From Methanosarcinaceae archaeon (GTDB lineage Archaea > Halobacteriota > Methanosarcinia > Methanosarcinales > Methanosarcinaceae), in assembly GCA_028690255.1 (NCBI GenBank), contig JAQVBP010000005.1, positions 1-35,008 of the forward strand: a DNA stretch of 35,008 nucleotides. The letters are read 5' to 3'. The stretch's first letter is position 1, and each line of letters begins with the position of its first letter. This document shows, piece after piece, positions 881-27,928 of this stretch. A program made the translations under genes and the position numbers. A model generated the notes under the pieces. It did not search any database. It was not told where the DNA came from and saw nothing but the letters and a program-made list of their open reading frames with translations.

Positions 881-1732
881 TTATTTAATCAATAAATTAA
901 ATCCTGAATTATTTGATTCCCATCTATTAATTGAAGCATAAAGATCTGTTCCAGAAAAGCATAAAAAATCAAAGGAAAGTCTCAAATTTCTTGATACAAT
1001 ATCATTATCTATAAATTTACTTGTATGGTTCCCAAATATTTCTTTTAGGCCAATTGTCAATATTTCTATCAAATCGTGTCCTTGACAAATTTGCCAAGGG
1101 TTGTGTGTGGATTTAATTGAACAAATCATAGATTTAATCTTTTTATAATCCAAAGTATAATTTTTTGGATTCTTTTCCAAATTATATAATAAACTACTAC
1201 AGTCAACCATCAGATTATTTTTGTCAGTAAACTGGCAAAAATCAAGTTTTTTGAAATCTATATACATATTATATTTTGAAGAGACCCATCTGACATACCC
1301 TATTTTTATACCACTCTGTATTAATATTTCACGTATTGGTTTGCCAAGTCTAATTAGTTTATTTTCATTTGCATATTCAGAGAGCATCTTTTCAAGTGCA
1401 TCTGATGAAAGAATCATTGTGTCAGTATCATGCGTATCTGTTATCAGCAAGTTTTTACTATATTTTTCCGGTTTGACTCCATCAACATGCCAAAAATCTG
1501 CGTCGACAATTGCTAACACGCCACAAACACCACTATGTTCAAGAATTAAAAGCGCATCGATAGCAGACGTTTTACATTTTGCATAGACCACATTACAAGT
1601 ATTGTCATCAATAAAACATTTGTAAACTCTTGAGTCTGTACTACCTTCAACTATTAGTATAGCTTGAGTAGAGTCCCTCCTACTCATCCTAGCTTTGTTG
1701 GCAATCCGGTTGGGAGTAATGTATCTTTTCAT
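881..1732 (-). CDS. DUF4435/TOPRIM-like putative nuclease (PARIS AriB-like / OLD-nuclease-like)
   Basis: 283-aa ORF. TOPRIM-type acidic motifs ILIVEGSTDSRVY (E29) and LAIVDADF (DxD), then ITDTHDTD. Starts 6 nt after the stop of the upstream ATPase gene. Very AT-rich. Confidence 0.6.
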   Translation of the reverse strand: MKRYITPNRIANKARMSRRDSTQAILIVEGSTDSRVYKCFIDDNTCNVVYAKCKTSAIDALLILEHSGVCGVLAIVDADFWHVDGVKPEKYSKNLLITDTHDTDTMILSSDALEKMLSEYANENKLIRLGKPIREILIQSGIKIGYVRWVSSKYNMYIDFKKLDFCQFTDKNNLMVDCSSLLYNLEKNPKNYTLDYKKIKSMICSIKSTHNPWQICQGHDLIEILTIGLKEIFGNHTSKFIDNDIVSRNLRLSFDFLCFSGTDLYASINRWESNNSGFNLLIK

Positions 1733-1738
1733 AGAAGT

Positions 1739-3067
1739 TCACCTAAATGAAGTATCTAACTTAACTGTTAAGTCCCACCGATCTTCTATGATATCTGGAG
1801 AATGAGTTGCTATAAGGACGTCAAGGTCTACAAGTTCAAGAACTTTCTGTAGATCACTTAAAAAGTCTTTTTGCCATCCTATGTGCAAAGAAATTTCTGG
1901 CTCATCAATTAAGATTAATGATTTGTGTTTTATTCTAAACAATAATTCATAATACAAAATTAGTTCATGTTGTTCCCCTGAAGATAGATTTGTTGGTAGA
2001 ATTTTTTTATTGTTTGATGTGGTAAAAATAAACCCCGTATTTTTATTTATGGATATACTTTTGTTGGCAAATCTACTGTTAATTATATTAACAAAAAGAT
2101 ATATTTTATCTCTAAGTTCATTGAATACATCCAATTTTTTCTTTACATCTTCAATATAAACAGAAAGAACGTGAGCATTTTCCTCGGTCAATTCTTGAAA
2201 CTCTCTGAAGTTAATTTCTTTCTCTTCATCAAGAAGGCCTGTTTTAATCAAATTAGTTCTTCTTTCTTCAAGGCTTGATAAGTATTCTTTAAGCTTGTTG
2301 ATATTTACATCATCTTTTGTCTTGGCTAATCGAATAGGAAACGTTCTATCTAAGGATTGAGAGAGACTTGCATATTCAGCAAGCTTTTTTTGAATAGCAT
2401 CTGATAATTCCCTTGAATAATCCATAACCGTATTCTCAATGGGTGCACCTTTCGAATATTCAAAATCCCTTTTCAAGCGCTTAAATGTAAACAACCTTTG
2501 AGTTGTTATAAAGTTTATATTGATCGATTTTTTTATATTAATAAACCACTCCTTCATGTTCTTTTCATCAAAATTTAGACCAAATTTCCACATAATTTCA
2601 TCAGATGAATATATTTCATTTTCGGGATCATAAATCCACTTATCATCATCTATTCTTATAAGTCCTGGAACTGTTCTAATTAATGAAAAAATATCCTTTC
2701 TATCATCAATTCTTTTTTTAATTATTACATTTTTATTTTTATTGTTGCTGTGTGATAGTATAAGTGAAATTTCATTTTTTGGAGTGTCATGTTGAAAACA
2801 ATTATTTTCACTTGAACTCTTCTTATTAACAATCTTTTTTAAACAAATAGTATTTCCATCATCAAAACTCACGGAAAATTCATCAAATGGAATGTCATAG
2901 AATATTTTATAATCTAAACAAAAAAGAGATTTTATCATTTCTAAAATAATGGTTTTTCCAACCCCATTTTGACCATGAATAATTGTTATATGATTCTCCA
3001 TGTTTAAATTTATTTCATGATCGTAAAGTTCGAAAAGATTTTTAATATTTACCTTCTTAACTCTCAT
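1739..3067 (-). CDS. ABC/SMC-type ATPase (AAA_15/AAA_21-like, PARIS AriA-like)
   Basis: 442 aa. N-terminal IKNLFELY..., Walker A GQNGVGKT, Q-loop FITTQR, ABC signature LSSGEQ, Walker B LILIDEPEISLH, H-loop IATHSP. Charged coiled-coil-like insert between the two lobes. Confidence 0.8.
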   Translation of the reverse strand: MRVKKVNIKNLFELYDHEINLNMENHITIIHGQNGVGKTIILEMIKSLFCLDYKIFYDIPFDEFSVSFDDGNTICLKKIVNKKSSSENNCFQHDTPKNEISLILSHSNNKNKNVIIKKRIDDRKDIFSLIRTVPGLIRIDDDKWIYDPENEIYSSDEIMWKFGLNFDEKNMKEWFINIKKSININFITTQRLFTFKRLKRDFEYSKGAPIENTVMDYSRELSDAIQKKLAEYASLSQSLDRTFPIRLAKTKDDVNINKLKEYLSSLEERRTNLIKTGLLDEEKEINFREFQELTEENAHVLSVYIEDVKKKLDVFNELRDKIYLFVNIINSRFANKSISINKNTGFIFTTSNNKKILPTNLSSGEQHELILYYELLFRIKHKSLILIDEPEISLHIGWQKDFLSDLQKVLELVDLDVLIATHSPDIIEDRWDLTVKLDTSFR

Positions 3068-3413
3068 AATATTACCTAATCCTATAGATTCTGAATATAT
3101 GATATAAGTCTTTTCTTATGTATAATTAATACCAGTAGTGGAAATTATCAATATGAGTACGAGTTACGCACTTGAGATGTAAAACCAAGCACATTAGAGC
3201 TTGTAGTAAATATTGTGCTTTAGACAGTTTGATGATTCATGCTACTGGTTTTCTGTTCAACTGCGTAAGTCCTATATGAGATAATAAATTATTTTTAATT
3301 ATAATCCTGTATCTCCCTGTCGTCTCCTTCGGAATTAGCAGAGAGGGTTTTAAAAAGTTCATAGTCCTCATCTGTGAGAGGTAATTCTTATTTTTTTCAT
3401 GATTTCACCTATA

Positions 3414-4727
3414 TTAACATTGATAAGATAAATTAGAAGCGGCTCTAAAGATCATATCAATCTTTTCTTTTTCTTTCGGCTTATCCTTCGGTTTTGGCTT
3501 CAAAGCATTCTTAACCTTCAAATAGGCCCCTGCAAAGAAGGCTTTAGAGTCTGATCTGTTAGAATGCCTGTAGCCGGTAACTTTGCTTATTGTGCCTTTC
3601 AGGAAATGTTTTTTAGGGCGGTTCTCGTCGGGCTTTTCTTTTTTCGGTTGAAGAGATTGGGAGCAAGACCAATTATGAAAACCGAAGGCCCAAAACATGT
3701 AACCGGATTCAGAGGTCATGCTTTTTTCTAAGTATTTTCGGAGATAATCATAAGGAGGGGTTCCGGCTGCATCCTCGGGACAACTGCCGGACCAGATCCA
3801 GGAAGAGCCCTGACGCCTGATAGTGTGAATGTCCAGGATCTCACCGCCTCCGTACCCCCTCCAGGCGTATTGTATCACACTTTTGGGCATGAGCCAGTTA
3901 ATCCCGAAAAAGGTTATATGGAAATGGACCCGCCCGTTTTTCTGAAACTCCCGGACGGCGATATATTCGGCGTGGTCCGGGAGATGATAACGTATGTAAT
4001 CAAGGAATTTTTCAAGGGCTTCATTTGTTTTATAATTGCATTCAGCTAAGGAACCGTACCCATAGGGCCGGGCTGTGAGGGTAAGTTCAGAGGCTACGCA
4101 GTGCCTCCGACTGGCTGCACCCCAGGCAAACCGGAAGCCCTGTATATTGGCGTCTTGTCGGTCCCGAGCCGTAAAACGGGTTTTATATGGCATTGTGTAG
4201 TTTTCAGCAAAAACCGGGCTACCTGTGGGAGAATAAGCCATATCAAGGCGTTCTGTTTTGGCCCGCTTGCAATAGTTGTTATATTCGGTTATTACCTCTT
4301 CTTCTACGTTATTGTGCTTGATCCAGTCGGAGCCCTCATAATGACCAAAAGAGTTTATACGGTTGAGCTTTAGAAGGGCTTTAAGCCGTTCAGGGCCTGC
4401 CCGCTTAAGGTGACTTAATGGTTCATGCTGCCGCCCGCTTGCGTGTTCGGTTTTTTCGGAGTTTTGCTTATCACAGATCAAGTCTAGGGAAGAACCCGAA
4501 AAAAAAGAAGATTCTTGCCGGGGATTTGCACGGACCCACAAAATAGAATCTACGTTTTCAAAAAAATATTTAACTTTTACTTTAGAATCACGGAGATAAC
4601 GGCGTACCTTCTGATAGCCATTTCTTCCGATCAAGCCTAACCTATCCGCTATTTGTTGCATAGTTAAGGGAACGGATAAAGTCATATCCCAAATCTTAGC
4701 TTTTTGCTCTGCTGTAAGCCCTGCCAT
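3414..4727 (-). CDS. Rolling-circle replication initiator (HUH superfamily, two-Tyr type) with N-terminal HTH-like region
   Basis: 437 aa. Motif 1 ELTLTARP (aa ~214), motif 2 RVHFHITFF (HUH, aa 268-270), motif 3 YLRKYLEK (YxxKYxxK, aa 328-335). Spacing is typical of RCR Reps. Lys-rich C-terminal tail. Confidence 0.75.
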   Translation of the reverse strand: MAGLTAEQKAKIWDMTLSVPLTMQQIADRLGLIGRNGYQKVRRYLRDSKVKVKYFFENVDSILWVRANPRQESSFFSGSSLDLICDKQNSEKTEHASGRQHEPLSHLKRAGPERLKALLKLNRINSFGHYEGSDWIKHNNVEEEVITEYNNYCKRAKTERLDMAYSPTGSPVFAENYTMPYKTRFTARDRQDANIQGFRFAWGAASRRHCVASELTLTARPYGYGSLAECNYKTNEALEKFLDYIRYHLPDHAEYIAVREFQKNGRVHFHITFFGINWLMPKSVIQYAWRGYGGGEILDIHTIRRQGSSWIWSGSCPEDAAGTPPYDYLRKYLEKSMTSESGYMFWAFGFHNWSCSQSLQPKKEKPDENRPKKHFLKGTISKVTGYRHSNRSDSKAFFAGAYLKVKNALKPKPKDKPKEKEKIDMIFRAASNLSYQC

Positions 4728-4797
4728 AGAATAACCCCGTTAGGACGGTAGTAAACCCCGGTATTGTTCGGTTTTAAAAAAAATAAAAAAAATAGGC

Positions 4798-5235
4798 TTA
4801 TGCCAGGGTTCCCAGAGCTTCCGCTAAGGTGGTTTGTTTAAAATGCTTGCAGAGATCATCCAGAGAAGGACCTCTTAGCTTCCAGTATGACCATTCAAGG
4901 CCACAGTCAGGACAGGTGATAAAGACCCACTGAGGGAACGAAAAACCCCTTAGACGGTATCCGCTATCATGGTCAAAGGTCCCGAGCTCTCCGGCCAGGA
5001 GAGAAGCCCCGCAGGAACAGGTTTTAACGGGGGCTCTCTGGAGACGGTCCAGGATTTGATCTTTGATGTAAATTGCATCAAAAATGTTTTCGATACTGCT
5101 TTTTATTTTGAGGGGAGGACCTCGGGGGGGCTGGTTGTGCTGTACTTTTTTCCAGCATTCCGGACCGTACCCGCGTTGTTTGCTTAAACGGTCCTTTAAG
5201 GCCCGTCCGCATCGAAGGCAGCGATTATAAGCCAT
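4798..5235 (-). CDS. Zinc-binding protein, DUF6011-like N-terminus
   Basis: 145 aa. CLRCGRALKDRLSKQRGYGPEC matches the CxxCGRxL...S...G.GPxC pattern of DUF6011 as I recall it. Second Cys pair set CSCG...CPDC. Start overlaps the upstream stop by 1 nt (TAATG). Confidence 0.55.
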   Translation of the reverse strand: MAYNRCLRCGRALKDRLSKQRGYGPECWKKVQHNQPPRGPPLKIKSSIENIFDAIYIKDQILDRLQRAPVKTCSCGASLLAGELGTFDHDSGYRLRGFSFPQWVFITCPDCGLEWSYWKLRGPSLDDLCKHFKQTTLAEALGTLA

Positions 5236-5696
5236 TAGGCCACCCCCAGGAAATCAGAAGCCACATAGGCCCATACAACCGCCCCCCGTGGAAACTTGAA
5301 AGTAACAGGCTTGATTAATTGGATGTTTTCAAGGTCCCAGAAATAGGTTTTACCATCAACCCAATAGGAAGAGGGGGCATAATGGGACCCGGCCAGCCGG
5401 TTAAATTCAGAAGGGAAGGCGATATTATCACAGCCGCTTAATTCAGCGAATGCAATTATAGCCCCATGAACAAAACAGGAATCCGGAAGGCTAATGTTTT
5501 GACTTTTCAATACTGTTTTTACATGCCGAAGGTGTACCCTGTCCGGGTTTGTCAGGCTGGCATAGATAGCTATTTTTTGCCTTTCAAAACCTTGAGGATA
5601 GGGATAACGCCGGACCTCATACCCTTTCAGGTCCGCAGCTATAAGGCCCGCGAAGGGTTGCCGGACAGCCAGGACGGGTATTTTTTTTTCGGTCAT
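5235..5696 (-). CDS. ASCH (PUA-like) domain protein
   Basis: 153 aa. N-terminus IPVLAVRQPFAGLIAADLKGYEVRRYP resembles the ASCH beta-barrel signature (SIxQPWAxLIxxGxKxxExR). ATGA overlap with the upstream gene. Confidence 0.55.
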   Translation of the reverse strand: MTEKKIPVLAVRQPFAGLIAADLKGYEVRRYPYPQGFERQKIAIYASLTNPDRVHLRHVKTVLKSQNISLPDSCFVHGAIIAFAELSGCDNIAFPSEFNRLAGSHYAPSSYWVDGKTYFWDLENIQLIKPVTFKFPRGAVVWAYVASDFLGVA

Positions 5697-6004
5697 GCGA
5701 GAACCCCCCGGAGGGTTCCCAGGAAGGCCAGGACGAGATAAACGGAAAAGAGGACCGCCTGCCTTTGGGCTGCATGGGCTTCAATGAAAAGCTCTTTTTC
5801 TTTCAGGGACCGGGCCGCGTTGATATTTGCGAAGACTAAAATAAGGTTTCCAGGAAGCCAAACGAGATTAGCCAGGCCAGCCTTTCCGAAGGAGACGCAG
5901 GCCGCGCCAGCGATTCCCGCGAATACTGCCAGGTCCATAAAGCCCAGGCGGGGAAGGTGTAGCCGGACCGCCCGGAAGGAAGGGGATAAAGCCGGGTGAT
6001 TCAC
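5693..6004 (-). CDS. Small hydrophobic (membrane) protein
   Basis: 103 aa, GTG start, 2-3 hydrophobic stretches. GTGA/ATGA overlaps on both sides place it in the coupled operon. Confidence 0.45.
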   Translation of the reverse strand: MNHPALSPSFRAVRLHLPRLGFMDLAVFAGIAGAACVSFGKAGLANLVWLPGNLILVFANINAARSLKEKELFIEAHAAQRQAVLFSVYLVLAFLGTLRGVLA

Positions 6005-6162
6005 AGGAACAGACCCCCGCAGCTATAAATTTTTTCGAAAAATTCATCTACTTCAAAAAAGGGGGTTCTTGGGTGGCGTTTGTTGTAAGCCTTCATTGTT
6101 GCCTTAACCGCGTATTTATCATACTCGGAAAGGGTCGCATAGCTTGACGTTCGGGGGTTCAT
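6001..6162 (-). CDS. Small ORF (53 aa), below the ORF-track cutoff, hypothetical
   Basis: Hand translation: MNPRTSSYATLSEYDKYAVKATMKAYNKRHPRTPFFEVDEFFEKIYSCGGLFL. The ATG overlaps the upstream stop (ATGA at 6159-6162). Its TGA overlaps the GTG of the next gene. Confidence 0.4.
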   Translation of the reverse strand: MNPRTSSYATLSEYDKYAVKATMKAYNKRHPRTPFFEVDEFFEKIYSCGGLFL

Positions 6163-6446
6163 ACCTTCACCCCCTGCCTCTTTGAAGCAATTTTAAAGAA
6201 TTTGGGGTTTGCTCCCCCCCGGATACGAATAACTTTTTTTTCTGCCTGCTGGAACTGAGCCCCGCAGATCTCACAGCGATAACCGGGCTTTCTTGTCCTG
6301 TGACGAATCCGAACGGTTCCGCAGAAAGGGCAGCATTTTAAAGACCGGGTCTTTATCTCCAACATTGGCCTAAAAGAGCCTGAATTATTTAGAACATTTA
6401 TACAGCCCTGAGCAGAGCTAACGCTATTTGAAGTTGTGTTTCTCAT
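6159..6446 (-). CDS. Zinc-ribbon protein, first gene of the coupled operon
   Basis: 95 aa with CCPFCG...(13 aa)...CEICG, a four-Cys ribbon. Basic C-terminus. Confidence 0.45.
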   Translation of the reverse strand: MRNTTSNSVSSAQGCINVLNNSGSFRPMLEIKTRSLKCCPFCGTVRIRHRTRKPGYRCEICGAQFQQAEKKVIRIRGGANPKFFKIASKRQGVKV

Positions 6447-16489: not shown

Positions 16490-17923
16490 ATGATTGAAGG
16501 AAGTAAAAAGAATCCTGAAAGTTCATATCGGGCCACAGTCGCCGCAAAAGAGCGTGTGCTTGGAAACGATGAGAACCCCGGGGAAGGCCGGCTTTTTCTG
16601 GGAAACTATCTGGCCCTTGACCGCTCAAAAGGGGCCGCGGTTTTCCTGGACGCTCTCAAACCCCACGCGCTTTTGATCTGCGGGAAGCGGGGGTACGGGA
16701 AATCCTATACCATGGGCTGTATCCTGGAAGAGCTGGCCCTTCTGCCCCCTCATATAAGGAAAAACCTGGCGGCCCTGGTTATTGATACCATGGGGGTCTT
16801 CTGGACAATGAGGTATCCAGGCAGGGCGGAAAAGCAAAAACTTGAGGAATGGAAACTCTTCCCCGCAGGTTTCGAGCTTGAAGTCTTCGTCCCGGCCGGA
16901 AAGGCGGAAGAGTACGAAAAACGGGATATAAAAGTCCGACCCTTTTCGATATCCTTATCCGAACTCAGCGGAAGCCAGTGGTGCGGGCTCTTCAATATAG
17001 AGGAGGTCTCCCCCGTAGGGGTCCTTGTGGTAAGGACAATTGACCTTTTAAGGGAAAAAGAAGAGAGAACTGCCTCCTACTCCTTTGAAGACATCAGCGC
17101 CACACTCCTCAAAGATAAACGCTCCGGCGGTTCGGCAAAAGGAGCCGCTGAAAACTATTTCAGGGCCATGGCCTCCTGGGGCATATTTGCAAAAGAGGGG
17201 GTAAAACTGGAGGAACTGGTCAGAGGGGGAAGGGTCACGGTGCTTGACGTAAGCAGCTTTGCAGGAGAAAAAGTCTGTGCGGCCGTGGTCTCGATCCTTG
17301 CGGGAAAACTTTATGAAAAGCGGATCGAGGCCAGGAGAGCTTATGAGAAAAAGCTGATGGAAGCTTCTTCTTCTGTGCTCCGATCCAGAGAAAGGGAAAA
17401 TGGAGGAGAAAATGGAGAAAATGGAGAAGATGGAGAAGATGGAGAAGATGGAGAAAAATATGAGGAAGAATTCCCGATGCCCTGGCTCTGTATAGACGAG
17501 GCCCACCTTTTCCTGCCCGGGGAAGGAAAGAGCCTGGCCTCCGGGGTTTTGCTTAACAACTGTCTCAGGCAGGGCCGCCAGCCGGGCCTTTCCCTTGTCC
17601 TTGCAACCCAGCGCCCTTCCAGCCTGCACGGAGAGGTAATCTCCCAGAGTGACCTTATAATCTGCCACCGGCTGACCTCGGGAGAGGATATACAGGCCCT
17701 TGAGGCAGCAAGACCCCTTTACATGCAGGAGAGCATACGGACCTACATAAAAAAGATGGGAAGCGAAAAAGGAGTCGCCTTAATCGTGGACGATCATTCC
17801 GAATCGGTCCACCTGGTCCGCGTGCGCCCCCGGAAGAGCTGGCACGGGGGCGGGGAGCCCAGTGCCCTGACTCCGGAAAGGGAAGAAAATGGTAGACCGG
17901 AAGGGGGGCCGAAGAGAGTATGA
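16490..17923 (+). CDS. HerA/DUF87-like P-loop ATPase
   Basis: 477 aa. Walker A CGKRGYGKS, Walker B WLCIDEAHLF. Low-complexity GENGENGEDGEDGED insert. No NurA-like neighbour. Confidence 0.7.
   Translation: MIEGSKKNPESSYRATVAAKERVLGNDENPGEGRLFLGNYLALDRSKGAAVFLDALKPHALLICGKRGYGKSYTMGCILEELALLPPHIRKNLAALVIDTMGVFWTMRYPGRAEKQKLEEWKLFPAGFELEVFVPAGKAEEYEKRDIKVRPFSISLSELSGSQWCGLFNIEEVSPVGVLVVRTIDLLREKEERTASYSFEDISATLLKDKRSGGSAKGAAENYFRAMASWGIFAKEGVKLEELVRGGRVTVLDVSSFAGEKVCAAVVSILAGKLYEKRIEARRAYEKKLMEASSSVLRSRERENGGENGENGEDGEDGEDGEKYEEEFPMPWLCIDEAHLFLPGEGKSLASGVLLNNCLRQGRQPGLSLVLATQRPSSLHGEVISQSDLIICHRLTSGEDIQALEAARPLYMQESIRTYIKKMGSEKGVALIVDDHSESVHLVRVRPRKSWHGGGEPSALTPEREENGRPEGGPKRV
17394..17458. repeat. 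9-bp tandem repeat ggagaa(a/g)at, about 6 copies, in frame within a CDS
   Basis: Read directly. Encodes the GEN/GED repeats. Confidence 0.9.
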
Positions 17924-19982: not shown

Positions 19983-21113
19983 TCAGGAAAACCATAATTT
20001 ATTCGCATTTTCCCAGACAAGCTTTCTTGCCACGTCCGCGGGGAGCATTGAGACAAGGGTATTGTATCGGGCCATTGTCTTGCCGAGAGTGACTCTTTTT
20101 TTGCCATTGTTAAGATAGTTAAAATGCCCGCAGAGATCACTTCCTATCATAAACCGGTCCGGATATTTTGTGATCAGCTCCACCCAGACCTCTTTGGGAA
20201 TTTTGGAATTTTCTTTGCAAACAATATCATCATAAACGATCCAGGACAGGTCCACTTGCAGGTTCCGGTGGTTCTCCAGCATCCCGTCCACCATTTCCCA
20301 GTATTTTTTATGGATTACCCGCCTGGAAGCTCCGCAATGAGCCCAGACAAGTTTGAGTTTCCTGTAATGGTCCAGTACAGCTTCGATTTCATGCAAATAC
20401 TCAAAATCCTCATGGTTTCCGACGGACGTGCTGTTCTGGTGGATGTTTACAGGCAGCCTTTTTCTGGCACAAAACTTGAAAACTTCCTCCAGACCCGGGT
20501 GGTTGGACCTTGCGGTTTCTTCAAGCGTGAGGTTGGTCAGGTCATCGTGCCTGAGCAAAAGTTCTCCCACCCCTTTCCAGATATCGGATTTCTTGAACAT
20601 CGCCTTAACATAATCGATAGCGAATTTGTCCGTGGGATTGAACCCGCAGAGTGTGGGTGCGATTCGCTTTTTTTCGGCAGGGGAAAGCTTCTCGTAATCC
20701 TCGGCCACTACCCGGTCAGTCAGGGCGTAGTAGTAACACTTTGAATTGTCATCCAGGTAGTAGTGCGGCATGTTGGGTTCGAAATATTCCCATTTTTTCT
20801 TTACCGGCAGGCCGAACAGAACGGTTTTTGCAATATTTCCCCGGTCCATTTCACGGATCAGGGCCTTCATACCGTCCGTTTGCTGAAGAAAATCCACATA
20901 ATGAAGGTGCATATCAATGACGCCTTCGGGAACCAGAGCCTCCTTTTCAGGAGCAACTGCATCCCTATCTGCTTTTAAAATATTCGAAGGGCCTTTCTTA
21001 AACAGCCCTTCGGGAAGCTTAACTTCTGTTTCGGATTCGTCCAGGATTCTCTGTTCAAAAGCTTGACTGAAACTCATATTTTGTATCCCTTTCCTGTTCT
21101 GAAAAAATCCCAC
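19983..21113 (-). CDS. Metal-dependent amidohydrolase-fold (TIM barrel) protein
   Basis: 376 aa. HxH metal motif IDMHLHY near the N-terminus of the barrel, later H/D ligands (NIHQ, WAHCG, GSDL). Confidence 0.65.
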   Translation of the reverse strand: MGFFQNRKGIQNMSFSQAFEQRILDESETEVKLPEGLFKKGPSNILKADRDAVAPEKEALVPEGVIDMHLHYVDFLQQTDGMKALIREMDRGNIAKTVLFGLPVKKKWEYFEPNMPHYYLDDNSKCYYYALTDRVVAEDYEKLSPAEKKRIAPTLCGFNPTDKFAIDYVKAMFKKSDIWKGVGELLLRHDDLTNLTLEETARSNHPGLEEVFKFCARKRLPVNIHQNSTSVGNHEDFEYLHEIEAVLDHYRKLKLVWAHCGASRRVIHKKYWEMVDGMLENHRNLQVDLSWIVYDDIVCKENSKIPKEVWVELITKYPDRFMIGSDLCGHFNYLNNGKKRVTLGKTMARYNTLVSMLPADVARKLVWENANKLWFS

Positions 21114-21262
21114 TCCCGTTCTGAATTATCCAATCCCTATTCTGAATTATCCAATCCCTATTCTGAATTATCCAATCCCTGTTCTGAAATAATCCAATCC
21201 CTATTCTGAATTATCCAATCCCTGTTCTGAAATAATCCAATCCCTGTTCTGAAATTATCTTA
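21097..21262. repeat. 21/22-bp tandem repeat ttctgaa(t/a)ta(a)tccaatccct(a/g), about 7.5 copies
   Basis: Read directly. The first degenerate copy overlaps the amidohydrolase start codon (21113). The rest fills the spacer up to the upstream gene stop. Confidence 0.95.
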
Positions 21263-21285
21263 CTTTACATTAGAATAAGGCCTTC

Positions 21286-22725
21286 TTATTGTATTTCTTT
21301 TGCCTTGAAGAGAGTCCAGGGCTGAGAAGGTCTGTCTTTCAGGTACCCGTCAAGGTGCTTCCACTGGATATGTTCTTTCAGGAACTCTGAGGCCTCAAAA
21401 GGAATGCCGGAAGAATTGCCCCAGCGCCCCCAGAAAGCAAACTCCTTTGCAAGCCTGCTGTCCATCACTTTGCCGTCCACGGCTCCCCTGGGCTGGAAGG
21501 GAAGAGGTCTCCCCGGCTGGCTCATAGATTCCCTGGCATCCAGTTCATAGTGCCCGTCAACCGTGCGGGAACAGGGATTATTGCGCTTTTTCAGGTAGAC
21601 ATCGTAGTGGTCCGCAATAATTTTCTTAGCGCTTTCCACGTTTATTCTGCCCCTGTACTCTTCCATCAACTCCTCCAGTCGGACCTGCCTGGCCCCCTGG
21701 TGTCTCCTTATGTCGGCATATCCCGTGTTCGAACATTCCAGGTTCCGGATGCGAGGGTCCAGAGGAGCATTAAATCCTATGAAATACCCCTCCTTTTTCC
21801 TGGAAACATTGTTGTATTCAAGTCCGAGTTCAAAGCGCAGGATTTCCCCCGAATTTATATCCCCCAGGTACCAGGTATTCGCATACCCCCCGTTATTCCC
21901 CTGCTTCATGAATTCCACAAACCTGTCAGGGCTCTCCGAGTACTGCATTGCCTTTCTTACCCGGAAAAACTCCGGAAGCTGGTCAGGGTCGTAACAGTTA
22001 AACCCTCCGATGGTCGTTTCGGTGCCCATCAACCCTGCCCCGGTTACAAAAAAGTCGGTCATGCTATGGATATAGCCGGGATAGGCTTGCATGAAAATGC
22101 GCTGGCCCCGGGCAGGCTTGATGTCAAGAACCAGGTTGCAGAATTGTCCGGTTTCAAAATTGCTCCAGGTGTTGTGGGCCATGACGATTTCGGGCCCGTC
22201 CTTTTCTTCGGCCCTTTCCCCCCCTCTTCCTTCAGACCTTTCTCCGGCCGTCGCCCCGCCCGTATAAGGGGCCGTGGCAATGAAAGCACTGCAGTGGTCC
22301 TTTCTGTTCCGTATGGACTCCGAAAATTTACCCTCTTTCCGGAGCGGCCACCAGTAACCCGTAAGTTCTTCATATCCGTTCCAGGCCAGCACTTCCTCCC
22401 AGGTGATTTTCACTCCGGCTTCCCTTGCCCCGGCCGCAATTCCCTGCATTTCGGCAAGAAATTCCTCGTCGATTCCAGAACCCGAAGGAGAAAGCCATAA
22501 ATCCCTGGCGGCCTCAACAAAAAACTCCCATTTTTTCCCGGTGTCCCAGTAGGTAAGGTACTCAATACTCCTCATAATTTCTTTAATTTCCGGGGCCATA
22601 AGGTAGCCGTGCTGAAACCCTCTCTCATAAGGACCTCCTTCGATATGAAGGCAGACCCAACCATTTATTTCATCCCTGAAACCTTCTTTATAGGCTGTGA
22701 TAGGACAGATTGTAAGCCCTCCCAA
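21286..22725 (-). CDS. Ntn-hydrolase-like protein, tentatively peptidase C45 / acyltransferase family
   Basis: 479 aa. Candidate nucleophile context KDHCSAFIA. Gly/Glu/Arg low-complexity insert. TTG start lies exactly at the GC/AT composition break, with no ATG until codon 43. Confidence 0.5.
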   Translation of the reverse strand: MGGLTICPITAYKEGFRDEINGWVCLHIEGGPYERGFQHGYLMAPEIKEIMRSIEYLTYWDTGKKWEFFVEAARDLWLSPSGSGIDEEFLAEMQGIAAGAREAGVKITWEEVLAWNGYEELTGYWWPLRKEGKFSESIRNRKDHCSAFIATAPYTGGATAGERSEGRGGERAEEKDGPEIVMAHNTWSNFETGQFCNLVLDIKPARGQRIFMQAYPGYIHSMTDFFVTGAGLMGTETTIGGFNCYDPDQLPEFFRVRKAMQYSESPDRFVEFMKQGNNGGYANTWYLGDINSGEILRFELGLEYNNVSRKKEGYFIGFNAPLDPRIRNLECSNTGYADIRRHQGARQVRLEELMEEYRGRINVESAKKIIADHYDVYLKKRNNPCSRTVDGHYELDARESMSQPGRPLPFQPRGAVDGKVMDSRLAKEFAFWGRWGNSSGIPFEASEFLKEHIQWKHLDGYLKDRPSQPWTLFKAKEIQ

Positions 22726-22926
22726 TTATTCAAAATTTAGATATGTAACAGGGAATCTTAATATACAATACTACATAATTGTTTTCAAAAGTTATGTACA
22801 GAAATATATAATTTGGAACTTATATTGATTGAATGGTATCAATAAAATTATGTGAATAACAAAAACAAAAAATAAAAACCGATACAGTACATTAACGTTA
22901 AATAATTAGAGAGAAAGAGGATATTT

Positions 22927-23721
22927 ATGGGATATGGAAATCAACAATATATTTATCCAGATTTAAAAGATCGAATCACATCTGTATTAATTAGCAGCAA
23001 AGAACCTTACGAAGGATACTGGGAGGAAAGTGAAAACTTCATACTAGATTTAATAAAAAAGCACATCAGCAAAGATATAATAAATAAAGAAAAATCTCTA
23101 TTAGACGCTGGTTGTGGGGAAGGAAGATTAACAATTTACTTTAGTGACTATTTTGAACGAATACTTGCAATAGACCCTGATAGGTCTCGACTAGATATTG
23201 CTATAAAAGAAACAAAACGACTTAAAATATCTAATAAAATTGACTTTGACAGTGTTCCTATAGAAGAGATCAATGAAGACGAAAAATTTGACGTAATACT
23301 TTGCAGTCATGTATTCCAACATGTTCAGACATCTCTTATCCCAAAGATTATAGAGAAATTAAGCATATTGATGAAAAAACCAGGATTATTATTTGTAACT
23401 ACATGTCATTCCACAAAAGGAGATGACTACTTCGTAAAAAATTATTTAGATGATTTTAATTTTGTAGAAGAAACTATTGATCAAGATTCTTTTAATTCTC
23501 TTGTTTTTGGAGTTAATCAATTACCTACGCACCTCTTTTCCCGTGGAAGCATTGAAGAGCTTCTTAAAAAGTCAGGGTTTAAAATTATTGATTATAAAGT
23601 TTTTCATATAATTGAAGAAGATTTTGGAACAAAACAAAATAGAGATATAACAGTTAATCAATCCCCCTCATTACAAAATAAATATGGGAGAGATGTATTT
23701 ATTGCCGCAAAAAAAGAGTGA
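22927..23721 (+). CDS. Class I SAM-dependent methyltransferase (not of DNA-MTase type)
   Basis: 264 aa. Motif I LLDAGCGEGRLT, post-I ILAIDPD, motif III/IV region DVILCSHVFQHV. No (D/N)PP(Y/F/W) or PCQ motif. Confidence 0.8.
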   Translation: MGYGNQQYIYPDLKDRITSVLISSKEPYEGYWEESENFILDLIKKHISKDIINKEKSLLDAGCGEGRLTIYFSDYFERILAIDPDRSRLDIAIKETKRLKISNKIDFDSVPIEEINEDEKFDVILCSHVFQHVQTSLIPKIIEKLSILMKKPGLLFVTTCHSTKGDDYFVKNYLDDFNFVEETIDQDSFNSLVFGVNQLPTHLFSRGSIEELLKKSGFKIIDYKVFHIIEEDFGTKQNRDITVNQSPSLQNKYGRDVFIAAKKE

Positions 23722-25345
23722 TGATAACAAGTCAAAATCAATCGAAATAAAAGAGATTCTTGGAGATGAAATAGAAGAAAATATTTATTTTTCAGATGTA
23801 TATATAGGATTTTTGTACACATTCAATATAGAAATTAAAAACATTTTATCAAAAAAAGAAATACAGTGTTTGCTGAAGGATAAAGGAATAAATGCTGAAT
23901 GGAATGAGAATGAAGAATATACAAAAGTTTTTGAAAGTGCAGAAGTTTTTTTTAAAGCCCCAGTGAGTGTTTTTACAAAACCACTTCGATTTAAAATCGG
24001 TTATTTATATTTTAAATGTCCACATATAAAGTACAAAGAAAATATAGAATGTATGTTTGATAAGCCTACAAAAATCGAATTATTTTTAACAATATACCCA
24101 AAACTTAAAAAAGCGATTTTACTTTTCAATATAAAACTAGAAAGTTGTGACTCGAATGACATTATTTTTCTCCGACATTGTTTCATGGGAGATAGACAAG
24201 AATTAATCCTTGACATTGAGCGATCTAATCCAAAAATATGCAAAACCTGTAACAAATTTAAAATCGATTGTGGCATAAGCAAACACTATTATAAGGAATT
24301 TAAAATTGACTGTGATATATATAATTACAGTGAAGAATTCAAAATTTATTTAGATATATGCGAACATTATAAAAAATATAAAAGATATTGTGAGAGATAT
24401 AAAACCTGTAAAAAAGTTAAAATTGATTGTTATATAAATTTTATTAAATCAGCATTTAGTGAAGTGAACGAAGAAAAATCAGATCAATCCGAAAAAAAAA
24501 TAGATAAAACTGATACGGAAAAATCGGAAGAAGAAAACACCTCATGCCCCATTGTTGTAAAAACAAACATAATAGAAATTCGGAACATATCCAACTTAAA
24601 TTATTTAAACGTAGATAATTGTGAAGATGATTTATTAAGCAGATATCCCAGACAGATATACAGTCTTTTGGTGGGAGACGAAGGATGGAAGTTTGTTCCA
24701 CGGAAACTGGCAATATCCAGAATAAAAAAAAGATGGGGGACCAGAGGATTTTTTACTGTATTCACATTCAATAACTCAGTTCTAGTTTTCAATTTTACAA
24801 AAACGAACCATTATAAAATATATGGATATACTCAAAAAGAATTAAGCAAAAGATTCAGACAAAAAACCGACGAATATTTTACCTTATGTTATGAAATTGC
24901 AGGCCTTGAACATGGTCCACTAACGAACCTTGAAATTGCATCGGTTATTCGATGTTCTCTTGATACTCTTTTTGAAAAACTTGATGATAAAAAATCAGAG
25001 TTGAATTATGAAAATGAAGATAATATAGTAAAAAAATTTCGTTCATGCATTTTCAATCATAAAAAAATCGAAAACATTAACCGCATGAAAAACGCAGTAA
25101 ACACAACTCTACTTGACCTAAATAAAATGAACAAAATATGGGAATTGGGGGAGCTACTTAACATGTTTAGTGAAAGTCTGTCAATATCGAAAGACATACT
25201 CAAGCTTGAGAAGAAATCGAATTTCATAGAAACCAAAATAATGACAGAGTATCAGAAAAATAACAATCTGATTTTAAGTGTATTAACATTACTTACAGTT
25301 ATCCTAACCTTTTTAGGGATTATTTGTGCAGTATATGAAATATAG
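23684..25345 (+). CDS. Hypothetical 553-aa protein. It has a Cys-containing FKIDC repeats, a coiled-coil-like C-terminal region and a terminal TM helix. Possible CorA-superfamily-like membrane effector.
   Basis: Long AT-rich ORF overlapping the methyltransferase gene by 29-38 nt. C-terminus NLILSVLTLLTVILTFLGIICAVYEI. Ends in TAG. Confidence 0.7.
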   Translation: MGEMYLLPQKKSDDNKSKSIEIKEILGDEIEENIYFSDVYIGFLYTFNIEIKNILSKKEIQCLLKDKGINAEWNENEEYTKVFESAEVFFKAPVSVFTKPLRFKIGYLYFKCPHIKYKENIECMFDKPTKIELFLTIYPKLKKAILLFNIKLESCDSNDIIFLRHCFMGDRQELILDIERSNPKICKTCNKFKIDCGISKHYYKEFKIDCDIYNYSEEFKIYLDICEHYKKYKRYCERYKTCKKVKIDCYINFIKSAFSEVNEEKSDQSEKKIDKTDTEKSEEENTSCPIVVKTNIIEIRNISNLNYLNVDNCEDDLLSRYPRQIYSLLVGDEGWKFVPRKLAISRIKKRWGTRGFFTVFTFNNSVLVFNFTKTNHYKIYGYTQKELSKRFRQKTDEYFTLCYEIAGLEHGPLTNLEIASVIRCSLDTLFEKLDDKKSELNYENEDNIVKKFRSCIFNHKKIENINRMKNAVNTTLLDLNKMNKIWELGELLNMFSESLSISKDILKLEKKSNFIETKIMTEYQKNNNLILSVLTLLTVILTFLGIICAVYEI

Positions 25346-25425
25346 TCACGCTTGCATTCGATGCGACAAAAATTACATGATGGTTTATATTTTGTTGTCG
25401 CATTACTCATGCTCGTGACTATATT
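25340..25425. repeat. Long imperfect inverted repeat / stem-loop beginning at the TAG codon
   Basis: Outer arms atatagtcacg / cgtgactatat. Inner arms atgcgacaaaa / ttttgt(t)gtcgcat. The unpaired middle forms an internal loop. Confidence 0.7.
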
Positions 25426-25453
25426 ATTACCAAATATAGCAATAATTCACTGA
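25343..25453 (+). other. In-frame UAG plus a 35-codon extension encoding a second hydrophobic helix (readthrough/Pyl candidate, or a recent nonsense mutation)
   Basis: Hand translation after TAG: SRLHSMRQKLHDGLYFVVALLMLVTILLPNIAIIH, then TGA at 25451-25453. Confidence 0.4.
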
Positions 25454-25535
25454 TTCCGTGACAATTTAATATTTATTATACACCAATTTCTTTGAAAAAG
25501 AAACATAATCCAGTAGACTTCTCTTCTCTGCCCTC

Positions 25536-25721
25536 AGTTGCCTTTAAATGCCGGTACTTCCTACTATCCCCTGATCGACATGCCACGGAAAAAGCAATTT
25601 GAAAAACCCCTGCATGGGGACAAGGAAAGTTTGAGATTCGCAAGCCTGAGCCAATTACCCGCTACAGGGCCCGGCGTCTGAAATGCCGGACCTGGCCGAT
25701 ATAAGCTACGGGACCGGGGGC
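25536..25721 (+). pseudogene. Degenerate duplicate of the 5' end of the methyltransferase gene at 26675
   Basis: Hand alignment to 26673-26860 gives about a dozen substitutions and two 1-nt deletions, which shift the frame. ATG at 25580 corresponds to GTG at 26717. Confidence 0.8.
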
Positions 25722-25860
25722 GAATCAATGTGAAAAAAAATCAATGTGAGAAAAGACAAATTTCATTCTCTTCCGTTTCTCTTTTACGTTTCTCTTTTTG
25801 CTTTCTGGCTTTCTGGTTTTCTGCCCTTATTGAAATTCGCCAGGTCTTTATTTAGTATAG

Positions 25861-25895
25861 CCAATTATAATGTGCTATAGTAAGTTATAAATTGG
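25861..25895. promoter_or_regulatory. Imperfect palindrome ccaattataa-N14-ttataaattgg upstream of the antitoxin gene (candidate TA operator/promoter)
   Basis: Read directly. Lies 21 nt upstream of ATG 25916 and contains TATA-like ttataa. Confidence 0.35.
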
Positions 25896-25915
25896 TTCAA
25901 ATCTAATAGCTGTTT

Positions 25916-26140
25916 ATGGCTGAAACGACGACCATTCAGGTAAAACAGAGCACAAAAGAAGCTCTTGAGAGAATGAAAATCTTCTCTAGAGAAACTTACA
26001 ATGATGTCCTGGAAAGGCTGATGGAAGAGGTTCAGGAAATAAACGAAGAGACAAAAAAAGAGATCGAATGTGCCCGTCAGGAGATTGAAGAAGGCAAATA
26101 CGTTACCCACGAAGATCTAAAGAAAGAAATGGGATTCTGA
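25916..26140 (+). CDS. Antitoxin (ribbon-helix-helix-like) of a RelE/ParE-type module
   Basis: 74 aa, acidic. N-terminal TTIQVKQSTKEALERMK (beta strand plus helix). Stop overlaps the toxin start (TGATG). Confidence 0.7.
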   Translation: MAETTTIQVKQSTKEALERMKIFSRETYNDVLERLMEEVQEINEETKKEIECARQEIEEGKYVTHEDLKKEMGF

Positions 26141-26409
26141 TGCGTTTTCAAATTATCTGGTCCGAATCAGCAGCTTCCCAACTAAAAAAACTGGACCATT
26201 CCGTTGCAAAGCGCATTTATCGGAAAGTCTCCGAACTTGAGGAGAATCCTTACCGTTACGTGACAAAACTTGTAGGGGATTCCAGTTACAGGCTGCGAGT
26301 TGGAGATTATAGAGTGATTCTGGATATTCAGGGCAACCACCTATCGGTTCTTGTGCTTAAAATCGGGCACAGAAAAGACATTTATAAAACCATAGCAGAA
26401 AACCCCTGA
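26140..26409 (+). CDS. RelE/ParE-family type II toxin
   Basis: 89 aa. YRLRVGDYRVILDI...VLVLKIGHRKDIY is the hallmark C-terminal pattern of RelE/StbE toxins. Confidence 0.85.
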   Translation: MRFQIIWSESAASQLKKLDHSVAKRIYRKVSELEENPYRYVTKLVGDSSYRLRVGDYRVILDIQGNHLSVLVLKIGHRKDIYKTIAENP

Positions 26410-26674
26410 GTCTTTAGCTCAGTGGCCGTTCACTTCTCGACTTCTTTTTGTCTCTGTATTTTCTTTCCTTACCTGCATTCCGCATTTTTAGGCGCATAAA
26501 GGTCTTTAGCTATTGAATTATATGCTTAAAATATAAGCACATGGTTTTTTTGGACTGGCTTTTAAAATCAGCATCAATTGAGATCATATGTTAGTAATAA
26601 TGCCTATATATGCGCTTAAAATTTGGAAACTAAAATTATAAACAAGAAAAGTTTTCTTTCCCCTGACCAGGTAG

Positions 26675-27757
26675 TTGCCTTTAAATGCCGGTACTCCCTA
26701 CTATTCCCTGATCGATGTGCCAAGGAAAAAGCAATTTGAAAAACCCCTGCATGGGGACAAGGAAAGTTTGAGATTCGCAACGCCCGAGCCAATTGCCCGC
26801 TACAGGGCCCAGCGCCTGAAATGCCGGACTCTGGCCGATATAAGCTGCGGAATCGGGGGCCAGACCATCTTTTTTGCCCAGCAGTGCGAGTCCGTCTACG
26901 CTGTGGAAATCGACCCGAAGAAAATCGAATACGCAAAACAGAACTGTGAGATGTACGGGCTCGAGAACGTGACTTTCATCTGCGGAGATGCCCTCGACCC
27001 GGAAGTCATAGCGCAGATCCCTAAAGTCGATATAGTGTTTTCGGACCCGGCCCGGCCGGCCGAAGAGGACGAGAGGCAGGTCTCAAGTATCGAGCCCGGA
27101 ATCCCGAACGTGCTTGAAGCCTATGCGGAAAAGACCCGGAACTTCGCCTTTGAGGCTCCGCCTCAGATGCCCCCCGAAAGGATTCCCTTTGACTGCGAAA
27201 AAGAGTACATCTCCCTCGACGGGCAGCTCAACCGCCTGACCCTCTACTTCGGAGCCCTCAGGCAGTTTGAAAGGCTGGCAGTCGCCCTCCCTGCGGGAGA
27301 GGGGCTTGTCGCAAAGGAAAACCCGATTTCCCAGGTCCGGGAAACCGATAAAATGAAACTCTATGCCTACGAACCCGAGCCCTCGGTCGTGGCAGCGGAA
27401 CTTTTGCCTGAGCTCATCGACTCCATGATCGACATCGTAGGGCCCCTTGTCGGAGGGTTTGAACTCTTCCGTGTAGATAAAAAAAGGATCCTGCTTACGA
27501 CAGATGCCCTTGCCAAACAGTCCATGGTCAAGAACAACTACCTCGTACTCGGGACCAGGCCTTTCGAGCCGAAGGAAATAAACGAATTTTTGAAGAACAG
27601 AAACGTCGGAAGCGTCGTCCTCAGAGCCGGGGTGAAACCCGAAGCCTACTGGGACGTCAGAAATGAAATCGAAGAAGGCCTGGAAGGAAAAAAGACCGTG
27701 CACCTCTTTGTGAAAGGGGATACCGCAATTCTCTGTGAAGTGCTTTTCAAGGATTGA
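26675..27757 (+). CDS. Class I SAM-dependent methyltransferase (RNA-methylase/Tgs-like N-domain plus a C-terminal domain of unknown function)
   Basis: Motif I LADISCGIGGQTIFFA, motif IV-like VFSDPARP. The track start is TTG 26675. In-frame GTG 26717 is the likelier start because the duplicated copy has ATG there. Confidence 0.8.
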   Translation: MPLNAGTPYYSLIDVPRKKQFEKPLHGDKESLRFATPEPIARYRAQRLKCRTLADISCGIGGQTIFFAQQCESVYAVEIDPKKIEYAKQNCEMYGLENVTFICGDALDPEVIAQIPKVDIVFSDPARPAEEDERQVSSIEPGIPNVLEAYAEKTRNFAFEAPPQMPPERIPFDCEKEYISLDGQLNRLTLYFGALRQFERLAVALPAGEGLVAKENPISQVRETDKMKLYAYEPEPSVVAAELLPELIDSMIDIVGPLVGGFELFRVDKKRILLTTDALAKQSMVKNNYLVLGTRPFEPKEINEFLKNRNVGSVVLRAGVKPEAYWDVRNEIEEGLEGKKTVHLFVKGDTAILCEVLFKD

Positions 27758-27876
27758 AGATTGAAGTTCAGAAACTAAATTTCAGGAAAAAATAAAAGAA
27801 ATGCTGCCCGGGTTTTCCGGGTAGCTTACTGTTTTTGTGCCTTATCAGCTGATGACCAACCAATCAGCCAAATACT

Positions 27877-27928
27877 AAACGAATTAGCTAAACGAATTAG
27901 CTAAACGAATTAGCTAAACGAATTGGCT
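27877..27928. repeat. 13-bp tandem repeat aaacgaattagct x4 (last copy has 1 mismatch) in a convergent intergenic spacer
   Basis: Read directly. Confidence 0.9.

Follow-up and report, generated by a model that had tools for sequence, protein, structure and literature searches.

A methyltransferase gene overlapping the gene of a putative CorA-fold membrane protein on a recently acquired insert of a Methanosarcinaceae archaeon

An AT-rich interval carrying two overlapping genes in the genome of a Methanosarcinaceae archaeon raises the question of how it was acquired and whether its two products form one system. The interval (positions 22726-25535) is part of a 35,008-nucleotide (nt) stretch of DNA, the window, which was analysed at its full length (contig JAQVBP010000005.1, assembly GCA_028690255.1). 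The upstream gene encodes a small S-adenosylmethionine (SAM)-dependent methyltransferase and the downstream gene a large protein of 553 amino acids (aa) with a terminal membrane helix. An earlier examination of the letters alone, the sequence-only reading, had taken them for a possible uncharacterised two-gene system with the layout of abortive infection. The insert carrying the two genes is a recent, strain-specific, horizontally acquired gain, and the pair is conserved as neighbours or as one fused polypeptide across bacteria and archaea. From homology, structure modelling and analogy, its products may constitute a single SAM-coupled membrane unit in which a SAM-dependent methyltransferase is joined to a CorA-fold protein, an explanation to which we assign a probability of about 0.5.

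Both genes are located on the + strand; the first spans 22927-23721 (264 aa) and the second 23684-25345 (553 aa). The overlap is 38 nt when the second gene is started at ATG 23684 and 29 nt from ATG 23693, which is favoured by the alignment of homologues and is likely the true start. The same-strand overlap of 29-38 nt described earlier was thus confirmed from the coordinates of the open reading frames (ORFs). In the 5' leader of the operon (22843-22926, + strand), the sequence shows an AGAGGA (22916-22921) that resembles a Shine-Dalgarno element and is spaced 5 nt from the ATG. A strong hairpin follows right after the stop codon of the second gene (25340-25424, + strand; minimum free energy -30.5 kcal/mol, z = -5.59, 0 of 200 shuffles as stable) and is likely the 3' end or a stabiliser of the operon transcript. 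No Rfam match was obtained in 20900-27000, the hairpin included, and no tRNA genes were detected anywhere in the window.

A word-indexed search identified three homologues of the large protein, and each retrieved context had a homologous methyltransferase upstream with an overlap of 29-41 nt. In a distant clade (locus L004), a 266-aa methyltransferase overlaps by 4 nt a 530-aa partner, which matches the large protein of the window at 2e-34. Pairs with a short overlap or gap were detected in L001, L002/3, L004/5, L006, L007, L122 and L123, and 10 N-terminal fusions to the same methyltransferase subfamily were present among the representatives listed (E down to 1.8e-46). A scan of reference genomes, built from the 26 closest family sequences, gave 32 loci. 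The methyltransferase was fused in 10 of these, upstream on the same strand in nine, divergent in one and absent in nine, while three were undeterminable; L022 and L030, where the family gene had no clean ORF call, were excluded from the counts. The reference-genome loci and eight distinct archaeal and metagenome loci made up 37 determinable loci, and the same methyltransferase subfamily was adjacent (18) or fused (10) in 28 of them. The pairing is therefore robust, in translationally coupled or fused form, and the condition under which the sequence-only reading would have been refuted, a lack of co-occurrence elsewhere, was clearly contradicted; the two genes form a genuine conserved system. 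The carriers included Methanosarcinaceae, Thermoplasmatales, many Clostridia, Anaerolineales, Armatimonadota, Actinomycetes and Bacteroidales. No literature describing a methyltransferase-CorA pairing was found.

The 264-aa protein is a class I SAM-dependent methyltransferase (Methyltransf_23, E = 1.8e-18; 67.2 bits against a cut-off of 27) and belongs to a distinct, well-conserved subfamily that is specific to this partnership; 17 close homologues of it were found. The Pfam scan gave no match to a DNA-methylase family, in agreement with the small class I enzyme that had been recognised from its motif I, LLDAGCGEGRL. Residues D60, G62, G64 and G66 are invariant across 24 partner methyltransferases. 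A total of 22 residues are invariant in this subfamily, all of which are present in the window protein, and many of them are located outside the SAM site (Y8, Y10, D12, T18, W32, E36, H128, Q131, H132, P200 and H227), which speaks for an active enzyme acting on a single conserved substrate. The protein did not reach any named NCBIfam equivalog (UbiG 58.1 against 102.95 bits, CpaM 49.7 against 180 and TehB TIGR00477 33.7 against 219.5), and its best NCBIfam similarity was to the quinone methylase UbiG (7.7e-16). The nearest solved structures were those of small-molecule N-methyltransferases, TehB (PDB 2xva and 3m70) and a thiol methyltransferase, and a weak similarity to TehB was also detected with PF03848 (3.2e-9).

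The 553-aa protein had no match in Pfam, NCBIfam or PADLOC, as anticipated by the earlier statement that it could be assigned to no family, and no Pfam or NCBIfam model covers its family. An exhaustive phmmer search returned 177 representatives, which are remote homologues. The conserved part corresponds to residues ~290-550, and the conserved core of the family measures ~415 aa. In an alignment of 86 members, D332 and R354 are invariant, and E333, G334, H410, G411 and E417 are at least 90% conserved. The family has a cytoplasmic signature, GDEGW...RW.SR.F...AG..HG; the signature motif YSLLVGDEGWKFVP (aa 326-339; 24659-24700, + strand) contains D332, E333 and G334. The alignments show that both proteins of the pair carry invariant residues of active-site-like character. 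The window protein also has a Cys-rich repeat insertion of its own, with KxCxKFKIDC-type units, in a variable linker (aa 185-249; 24236-24430, + strand; predicted local distance difference test (pLDDT) 48-63). This block corresponds to 37-nt DNA repeats (family D4) and is absent from every aligned homologue. The protein ends in a single membrane helix (aa 529-547; 25268-25324, + strand). The Cys repeat block, acidic linker, helix-rich C-terminal third and terminal membrane helix of the sequence-only reading were therefore all recovered. Among 136 complete family members, one membrane helix was predicted in 106, two in 25 and three in five, and the single helix of the 106 runs to the C-terminus without an external loop.

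The AlphaFold2 model of the large protein, calculated with 86 homologues (mean pLDDT 82.9, predicted template modelling score (pTM) 0.84), consists of an alpha/beta cytoplasmic domain, long helices and the terminal membrane helix. In the window copy, the alpha/beta domain is split by a low-confidence insertion of ~120 aa (~residues 171-290), which comprises the Cys-rich repeats and the acidic linker. When the model was compared with PDB using Foldseek, every one of the top 46 matches, aligned over ~300 columns, was a CorA or ZntB structure, some of them comprising the soluble domain only. The hydropathy census and the alignments to CorA of M. jannaschii and E. coli placed the membrane helix after a Y-x4-N-x5-LT motif, in register with the entry to the first transmembrane helix (TM1) of CorA; in the family profile this motif is in register with N-Q-I-M-K-I-L-T of M. 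jannaschii CorA. Alignment with E. coli CorA using hhalign placed the end of the window protein, ...AVYEI, at the position of the Tyr preceding the GMN motif of CorA. The motif itself, searched as G[MVI]N, was detected in only one of the 136 complete members and not in the window protein. The PADLOC profiles of CRISPR-type CorA-like proteins matched 14-15 of the 86 family members weakly, and the strongest displayed match was the tail of the L037 protein (5.5e-6). PF01544 had no match in the window protein and matched one of the 86 members (4.4e-4).

On our reading of the model and the alignments, the large protein would be a CorA-fold protein that is cut off after TM1 and lies outside PF01544. 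The best explanation of the model is that the protein may have kept the soluble domain and stalk of CorA together with the first, pore-lining helix, while GMN and the second helix were lost. The CorA-like tail of the sequence-only reading is upheld by the PADLOC matches, the Foldseek ranking and the in-register tail alignments. Compared with canonical CorA/ZntB (PF01544; T. maritima, M. jannaschii and E. coli), the protein would be alike in overall fold, to judge from the 46 matches with their weak statistics, and its stalk and N-x5-LT entry motif align in register. It differs in lacking the PF01544 match and GMN, in the second helix, absent in 106 of 136 members, and in the conserved cytoplasmic signature, which is the family's own. 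If the reading is correct, the CorA fold can persist with the pore-lining helix only.

Several results weigh against this reading and against the unit built upon it. The Foldseek similarity to CorA is statistically weak (best E = 0.016, none at or below 1e-3; probability 0.85, TM-score ~0.24). The PADLOC CorA-like matches spanned the last ~100 residues only in the two members with coordinates displayed. The family profile compared with PDB sequences gave CorA at a non-significant E of ~3, and hhalign with a two-sequence CorA profile gave a probability of 6.5% (P = 0.0056). A single membrane helix without GMN does not guarantee a pore, and the protein may act as an anchor only. Also, the methyltransferase is absent at nine of the 37 determinable loci; therefore, the membrane protein can work alone.

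The closest known parallel is the CorA effector of type III CRISPR in Bacteroides fragilis and Clostridium botulinum, which is toxic and gated by SAM-AMP and is paired with NrN, DEDD or SAM-AMP lyase as an obligate, sometimes fused, SAM-AMP-degrading partner (PMC10600005, PMC12255297, PMC11229360). Like this effector, the large protein would be a CorA-type membrane protein that has diverged and whose N-terminal part forms a large soluble domain. The partner of the CRISPR effector is likewise an enzyme that handles a SAM-derived molecule, and the tails of some family members are weakly matched by the CRISPR-CorA profiles, as given above. However, the partner in our pair is a methyltransferase and not a phosphodiesterase or lyase, and most members of the family have one membrane helix. 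The window protein was not matched by the PADLOC CRISPR-CorA profiles PDLC01043 and PDLC01174. No cas genes, cas10 included, were detected among the scanned ORFs of the window or among the families listed for 119 neighbours from 35 loci, and a methyltransferase partner is not mentioned in the literature found on CRISPR CorA. The lack of cas10 context and of a profile match, together with the different partner enzyme, therefore places the pair outside the CRISPR CorA family. The best reading, by analogy, is that the pair may work like CRISPR CorA and its SAM-AMP-degrading enzyme without being a member of that family.

A membrane channel and a SAM methyltransferase are also combined in the tellurite-resistance operon TehA/TehB, in which TehA is a ten-helix channel of the TehA/SLAC1 type. 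The pair shares with this operon the two-gene layout of a membrane protein and a class I SAM methyltransferase, and the weak TehB similarity. However, the methyltransferase of the window is far below the TehB equivalog cut-offs, and its membrane partner is CorA-like with a single helix. No system of the defence catalogue used (PADLOC-DB v2.0.0) matched the pair; the only match was that of a generic methyltransferase core to mad2 (6.1e-18). Membership in MADS was rejected, as the housekeeping methyltransferase gene next door scored better with the same model (1e-21).

The acquisition of the pair was analysed by comparison with closely related strains. The GC content is 0.25-0.33 across ~22600-25600 and 0.43-0.60 on either side (400-nt windows), and the interval 22726-25535 has a GC content of 0.283 compared with 0.465 for the rest of the window, so the AT-rich island seen by eye is real. 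BLASTN and junction alignments against the relatives L120, L121 and L058 delimited an insertion of 2,716 nt at 22843-25558 (GC 28.8%), which stands in place of the 21-nt stretch AAGATAAAAATCAAAGAACCA of these relatives. The 117 nt before it (22726-22842), also AT-rich, are 89-100% identical in the three relatives and belong natively to the upstream region of C45. They separate the insert from the start codon of C45, which the sequence-only reading had described as adjoining the island with zero spacer.

In L120 (~88-89% nt identity to the window), the C45 gene and the neighbouring methyltransferase gene are arranged back to back, ~160 bp apart, with neither the island nor the toxin-antitoxin (TA) module of the window between them. 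In L121 (98% identity), a DUF7557/ParE TA module adjoins C45 and the AT-rich pair is absent. L058 (100% / 97.6% identity) displayed the same state, with the TA module and without the pair. Thus, the empty site is found in strains that are 98-100% identical to the window in the flanks. The GC contents at third codon positions (GC3) of the pair genes are 0.20 and 0.25, against 0.55-0.70 in the flanking genes. Horizontal acquisition, already supposed from the composition, follows from the empty sites in near-identical strains together with this foreign codon composition.

Neither a target-site duplication nor a terminal inverted repeat was found in the junction comparison, and the insert carries no gene for an integrase, transposase or recombinase; entry by a transposon or integrase was rejected on these grounds. 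The region next to the insert (25536-25721, + strand) is a duplicated 5' end of the neighbouring methyltransferase gene, a copy of 26673-26860 with ~93% identity, according to the repeat families D2, D7 and D8 and the junction comparison; the duplicated fragment described earlier was thereby confirmed. The last 23 nt of the insert are the first 23 nt of this duplicated 5' end, and the homology runs on. This homology suggests that the insert entered via homologous recombination at a hotspot.

The TA module that the sequence-only reading had placed next door does exist as a DUF7557/ParE pair. It is found without the methyltransferase pair in L121 and L058; therefore, it is an independent occupant of the same hotspot. 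The module (25916-26409) is bracketed by a direct repeat of ~165-190 nt (25536-25721 / 26673-26860), and is absent in L120 and present in L121 and L058. L121 departs from the window right of 26471. The pair is a strain-variable accessory insertion, as seen from the empty sites in the three relatives and the TA module that sits independently at the same junction. Judged by these alignments, the intergenic region between C45 and the methyltransferase gene is a multi-event recombination hotspot. The window offers a clean example of a recent gain of genes (2.7 kb), made by a Methanosarcinaceae population at a recombination hotspot.

The composition and the neighbours of the pair were also compared across its carriers. 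The archaeal copies are compositionally foreign; the GC3 of the pair in L004 and L006 is 0.32-0.42 against 0.63-0.74 in the flanks, and the pair proteins of these two loci are 62-65% identical, compared with 94-95% for adjacent housekeeping proteins. The bacterial copies match the composition of their own flanks. In seven Clostridia loci the fused gene is located directly upstream of pcrA, followed by ligA in six of them, and the contig of the seventh (L013) ends inside pcrA. A trehalose-synthase (TreS) homologue (PDB 5x7u, 1.7e-82) is found directly upstream of the pair in four of five Methanosarcina-type loci (L001 7079-9046, L002 7024-8877, L007 1575-3485 and L122 58-1698), and that of M. 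siciliae has the low GC of the island. In four of five Bacteroidales loci (L035, L036, L037 and L039), a glycoside hydrolase family 13 (GH13) gene of 363-376 aa follows directly downstream with a gap of at most 2 nt or a short overlap; the family members at these loci have 487-583 aa and no methyltransferase. The L037 enzyme, the one examined, is neopullulanase/amylase-like. A single shared GH13 third component was rejected, as the enzymes of the Methanosarcina-type and Bacteroidales loci belong to different subfamilies (27% identity over 88 aa).

The neighbours were chiefly of housekeeping or carbohydrate function; among the 119 neighbour genes from 35 loci, the recurrent families were pcrA/ligA, GH13, glutamine synthetase (matched by five neighbours) and rpoA with ribosomal protein L17. 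The listing, which covered the 25 families that occur most often, gave no defence enrichment. In PADLOC, the 25 neighbour families listed were without exception UvrD-helicase models, which came from the seven PcrA proteins. The GajB matches were accordingly discarded as defence, because the proteins are housekeeping PcrA, followed by LigA. No viral, phage or plasmid carriers of the large-protein family were found in IMG/VR, INPHARED and PLSDB, and a fold search of BFVD found nothing.

Three observations concern the archaeal loci. In the higher-GC archaeal clade (L004, L006 and L123), the pair keeps one syntenic position, following proteasome, aCPSF1 and DUF63 genes in L004 and L006 and preceding radical SAM/SPASM and polyprenyl synthase genes in L004 and L123. 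Despite this position, the GC content of the pair in L004 and L006 is 16-19 points lower than that of the flanks, and its divergence is far faster. L002 encodes, at 3213-6179 (- strand) and 4.6 kb from its complete pair, a 471-aa paralogue of the large protein without a membrane helix; this is preceded by a 482-aa protein without a family match at the place expected for the methyltransferase.

As we see it, the insert would be a self-contained two-gene operon encoding one functional unit. The dedicated methyltransferase may dock on the cytoplasmic domain of an oligomeric CorA-like membrane module, and the state of this module, which could be a pore or a membrane platform, would be coupled to the binding of SAM or to the transfer of its methyl group, with either a small ligand or the partner protein as the target. 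The logic would be that of the CRISPR-associated CorA with its SAM-AMP-degrading enzyme, without CRISPR. The role of such a unit is accessory and has about an even chance of being physiological (ion, solute or stress homeostasis), a role favoured over antiviral defence because of the genomic context. Defence as the role is doubtful; it stays alive because of the hotspot polymorphism, the foreign composition and the fast divergence.

More specific explanations can be weighed on the same evidence. A homeostasis module, in which a CorA-like membrane protein that senses ions is coupled to, or regulates, the methylation of a small solute (compatible-solute precursor, metalloid or thiol) by analogy with TehA/TehB, is suggested by the TreS homologues upstream of the Methanosarcina-type pairs, including the low-GC copy of M. 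siciliae, by the GH13 genes downstream in Bacteroidales and by the five glutamine synthetase neighbours. The small-molecule N-methyltransferases, TehB and the thiol methyltransferase among the solved relatives point the same way, as do the native, syntenic bacterial copies. However, the two GH13 types are of different subfamilies, the window insert has no TreS or GH13 gene, the methyltransferase remains under all equivalog cut-offs (those of TehB and UbiG included), and neither GMN nor a second helix indicates a selective ion path. We regard this module as a tentative and somewhat doubtful explanation. In an antiviral or abortive-infection system, the methyltransferase would sense a SAM-type signal or use it up, for instance as a guard of the SAM pool against SAM lyases of viruses, and on infection would release the CorA-like protein to permeabilise the membrane. 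This would fit the presence/absence polymorphism among strains with 98-100% identity at a hotspot that also takes up a TA module, the foreign GC, which equals that of a PARIS-like pair in the window, the patchy phyletic spread, the fast divergence of the archaeal copies and the remote kinship with the toxic, SAM-AMP-gated CRISPR CorA effector. However, the abortive-infection layout proposed by the sequence-only reading was not supported: no PADLOC system was matched beyond the generic mad2 hit, the neighbours showed no defence enrichment once the GajB matches were recognised as PcrA, viral, phage and plasmid carriers were not found, and the bacterial copies have native GC, seven of them in a conserved place upstream of pcrA-ligA. 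Such a system is rather unlikely.

A third alternative needs neither pore nor gating. The large protein would be a tail-anchored scaffold that brings the methyltransferase to the membrane, where it would methylate a lipid or envelope component. The single C-terminal helix without an external loop in most complete members agrees with this, the best NCBIfam similarity is to a quinone methylase, and in the fusion proteins the enzyme would be held at the membrane. However, an anchor would need neither a conserved cytoplasmic domain of ~380 aa with the fully or nearly invariant charged residues D332, E333, R354, H410 and E417 nor the CorA TM1 entry motif, and nine loci hold the large protein without the methyltransferase. 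A mere anchor is very unlikely. The single SAM-coupled membrane unit is the reading we prefer. On a further, unlikely reading, the pair may be a CRISPR-independent relative of the SAM-AMP/CorA axis, a truncated CorA-type effector gated by a SAM-derived molecule whose level is set by a dedicated, often fused methyltransferase. One version would be a guard that fires upon viral SAM depletion.

If the two proteins act as one unit, they would represent an undescribed family of ~177 sequence clusters that joins SAM chemistry to a CorA-type membrane module. Control of a CorA-like protein through SAM has been characterised so far only for the SAM-AMP pathway, a recent discovery in type III CRISPR, and why that pathway cannot do without a partner that degrades the ligand has yet to be explained. 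A simpler pair that is free of CRISPR, and in which natural fusions fix the two proteins as partners, could make this requirement testable. If the relationship to the SAM-AMP/CorA axis is true, SAM-linked control of CorA-type effectors would not be confined to type III CRISPR but would extend to a family found in Clostridia, Actinomycetes, Thermoplasmatales and methanogens.

Some further features of the window were recorded. The C45 gene starts with TTG right after an in-frame TAA, as had been described; the 5' truncation supposed from this arrangement was ruled out by homologues of 59-63% identity, which align from residues 1-6. The true start of the neighbouring RNA-type methyltransferase ORF (26675-27757) is probably GTG 26717, which gives 346 aa as in L120, and not TTG 26675 (360 aa), because the upstream 42 nt are not conserved in L120. 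A second AT-rich block is located at 881-4727 (- strand; GC 0.28-0.31) and includes, at 881-3067, a PARIS-type AriA/AriB pair that, unlike the methyltransferase pair, was plainly recognised and is composed of a 442-aa AAA_15/AAA_21 ATPase (AriA, 4.8e-25) and a 283-aa partner (AriB, 5.9e-19). A rolling-circle Rep gene (REP_ORF2-G2P, 1.1e-10) adjoins this pair, and the block is probably what is left of a plasmid or virus that had integrated. An array of ~7-9 tandem repeats of 21/22 nt (TTCTGAATTATCCAATCCCTA) at 21084-21277, which separates the amidohydrolase gene from C45, gave multiple offset BLAST matches against L121 and L044. Another tandem repeat, of 13 nt (CTAAACGAATTAG, 4.2 copies), is found at 27875-27928 between the methyltransferase and alanyl-tRNA synthetase (AlaRS) genes. 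The ORF at 16490-17923 encodes a 477-aa HerA-like ATPase (DUF87, 8.5e-12), which is also matched by the PADLOC HerA and mad8 profiles (down to 8.5e-17).

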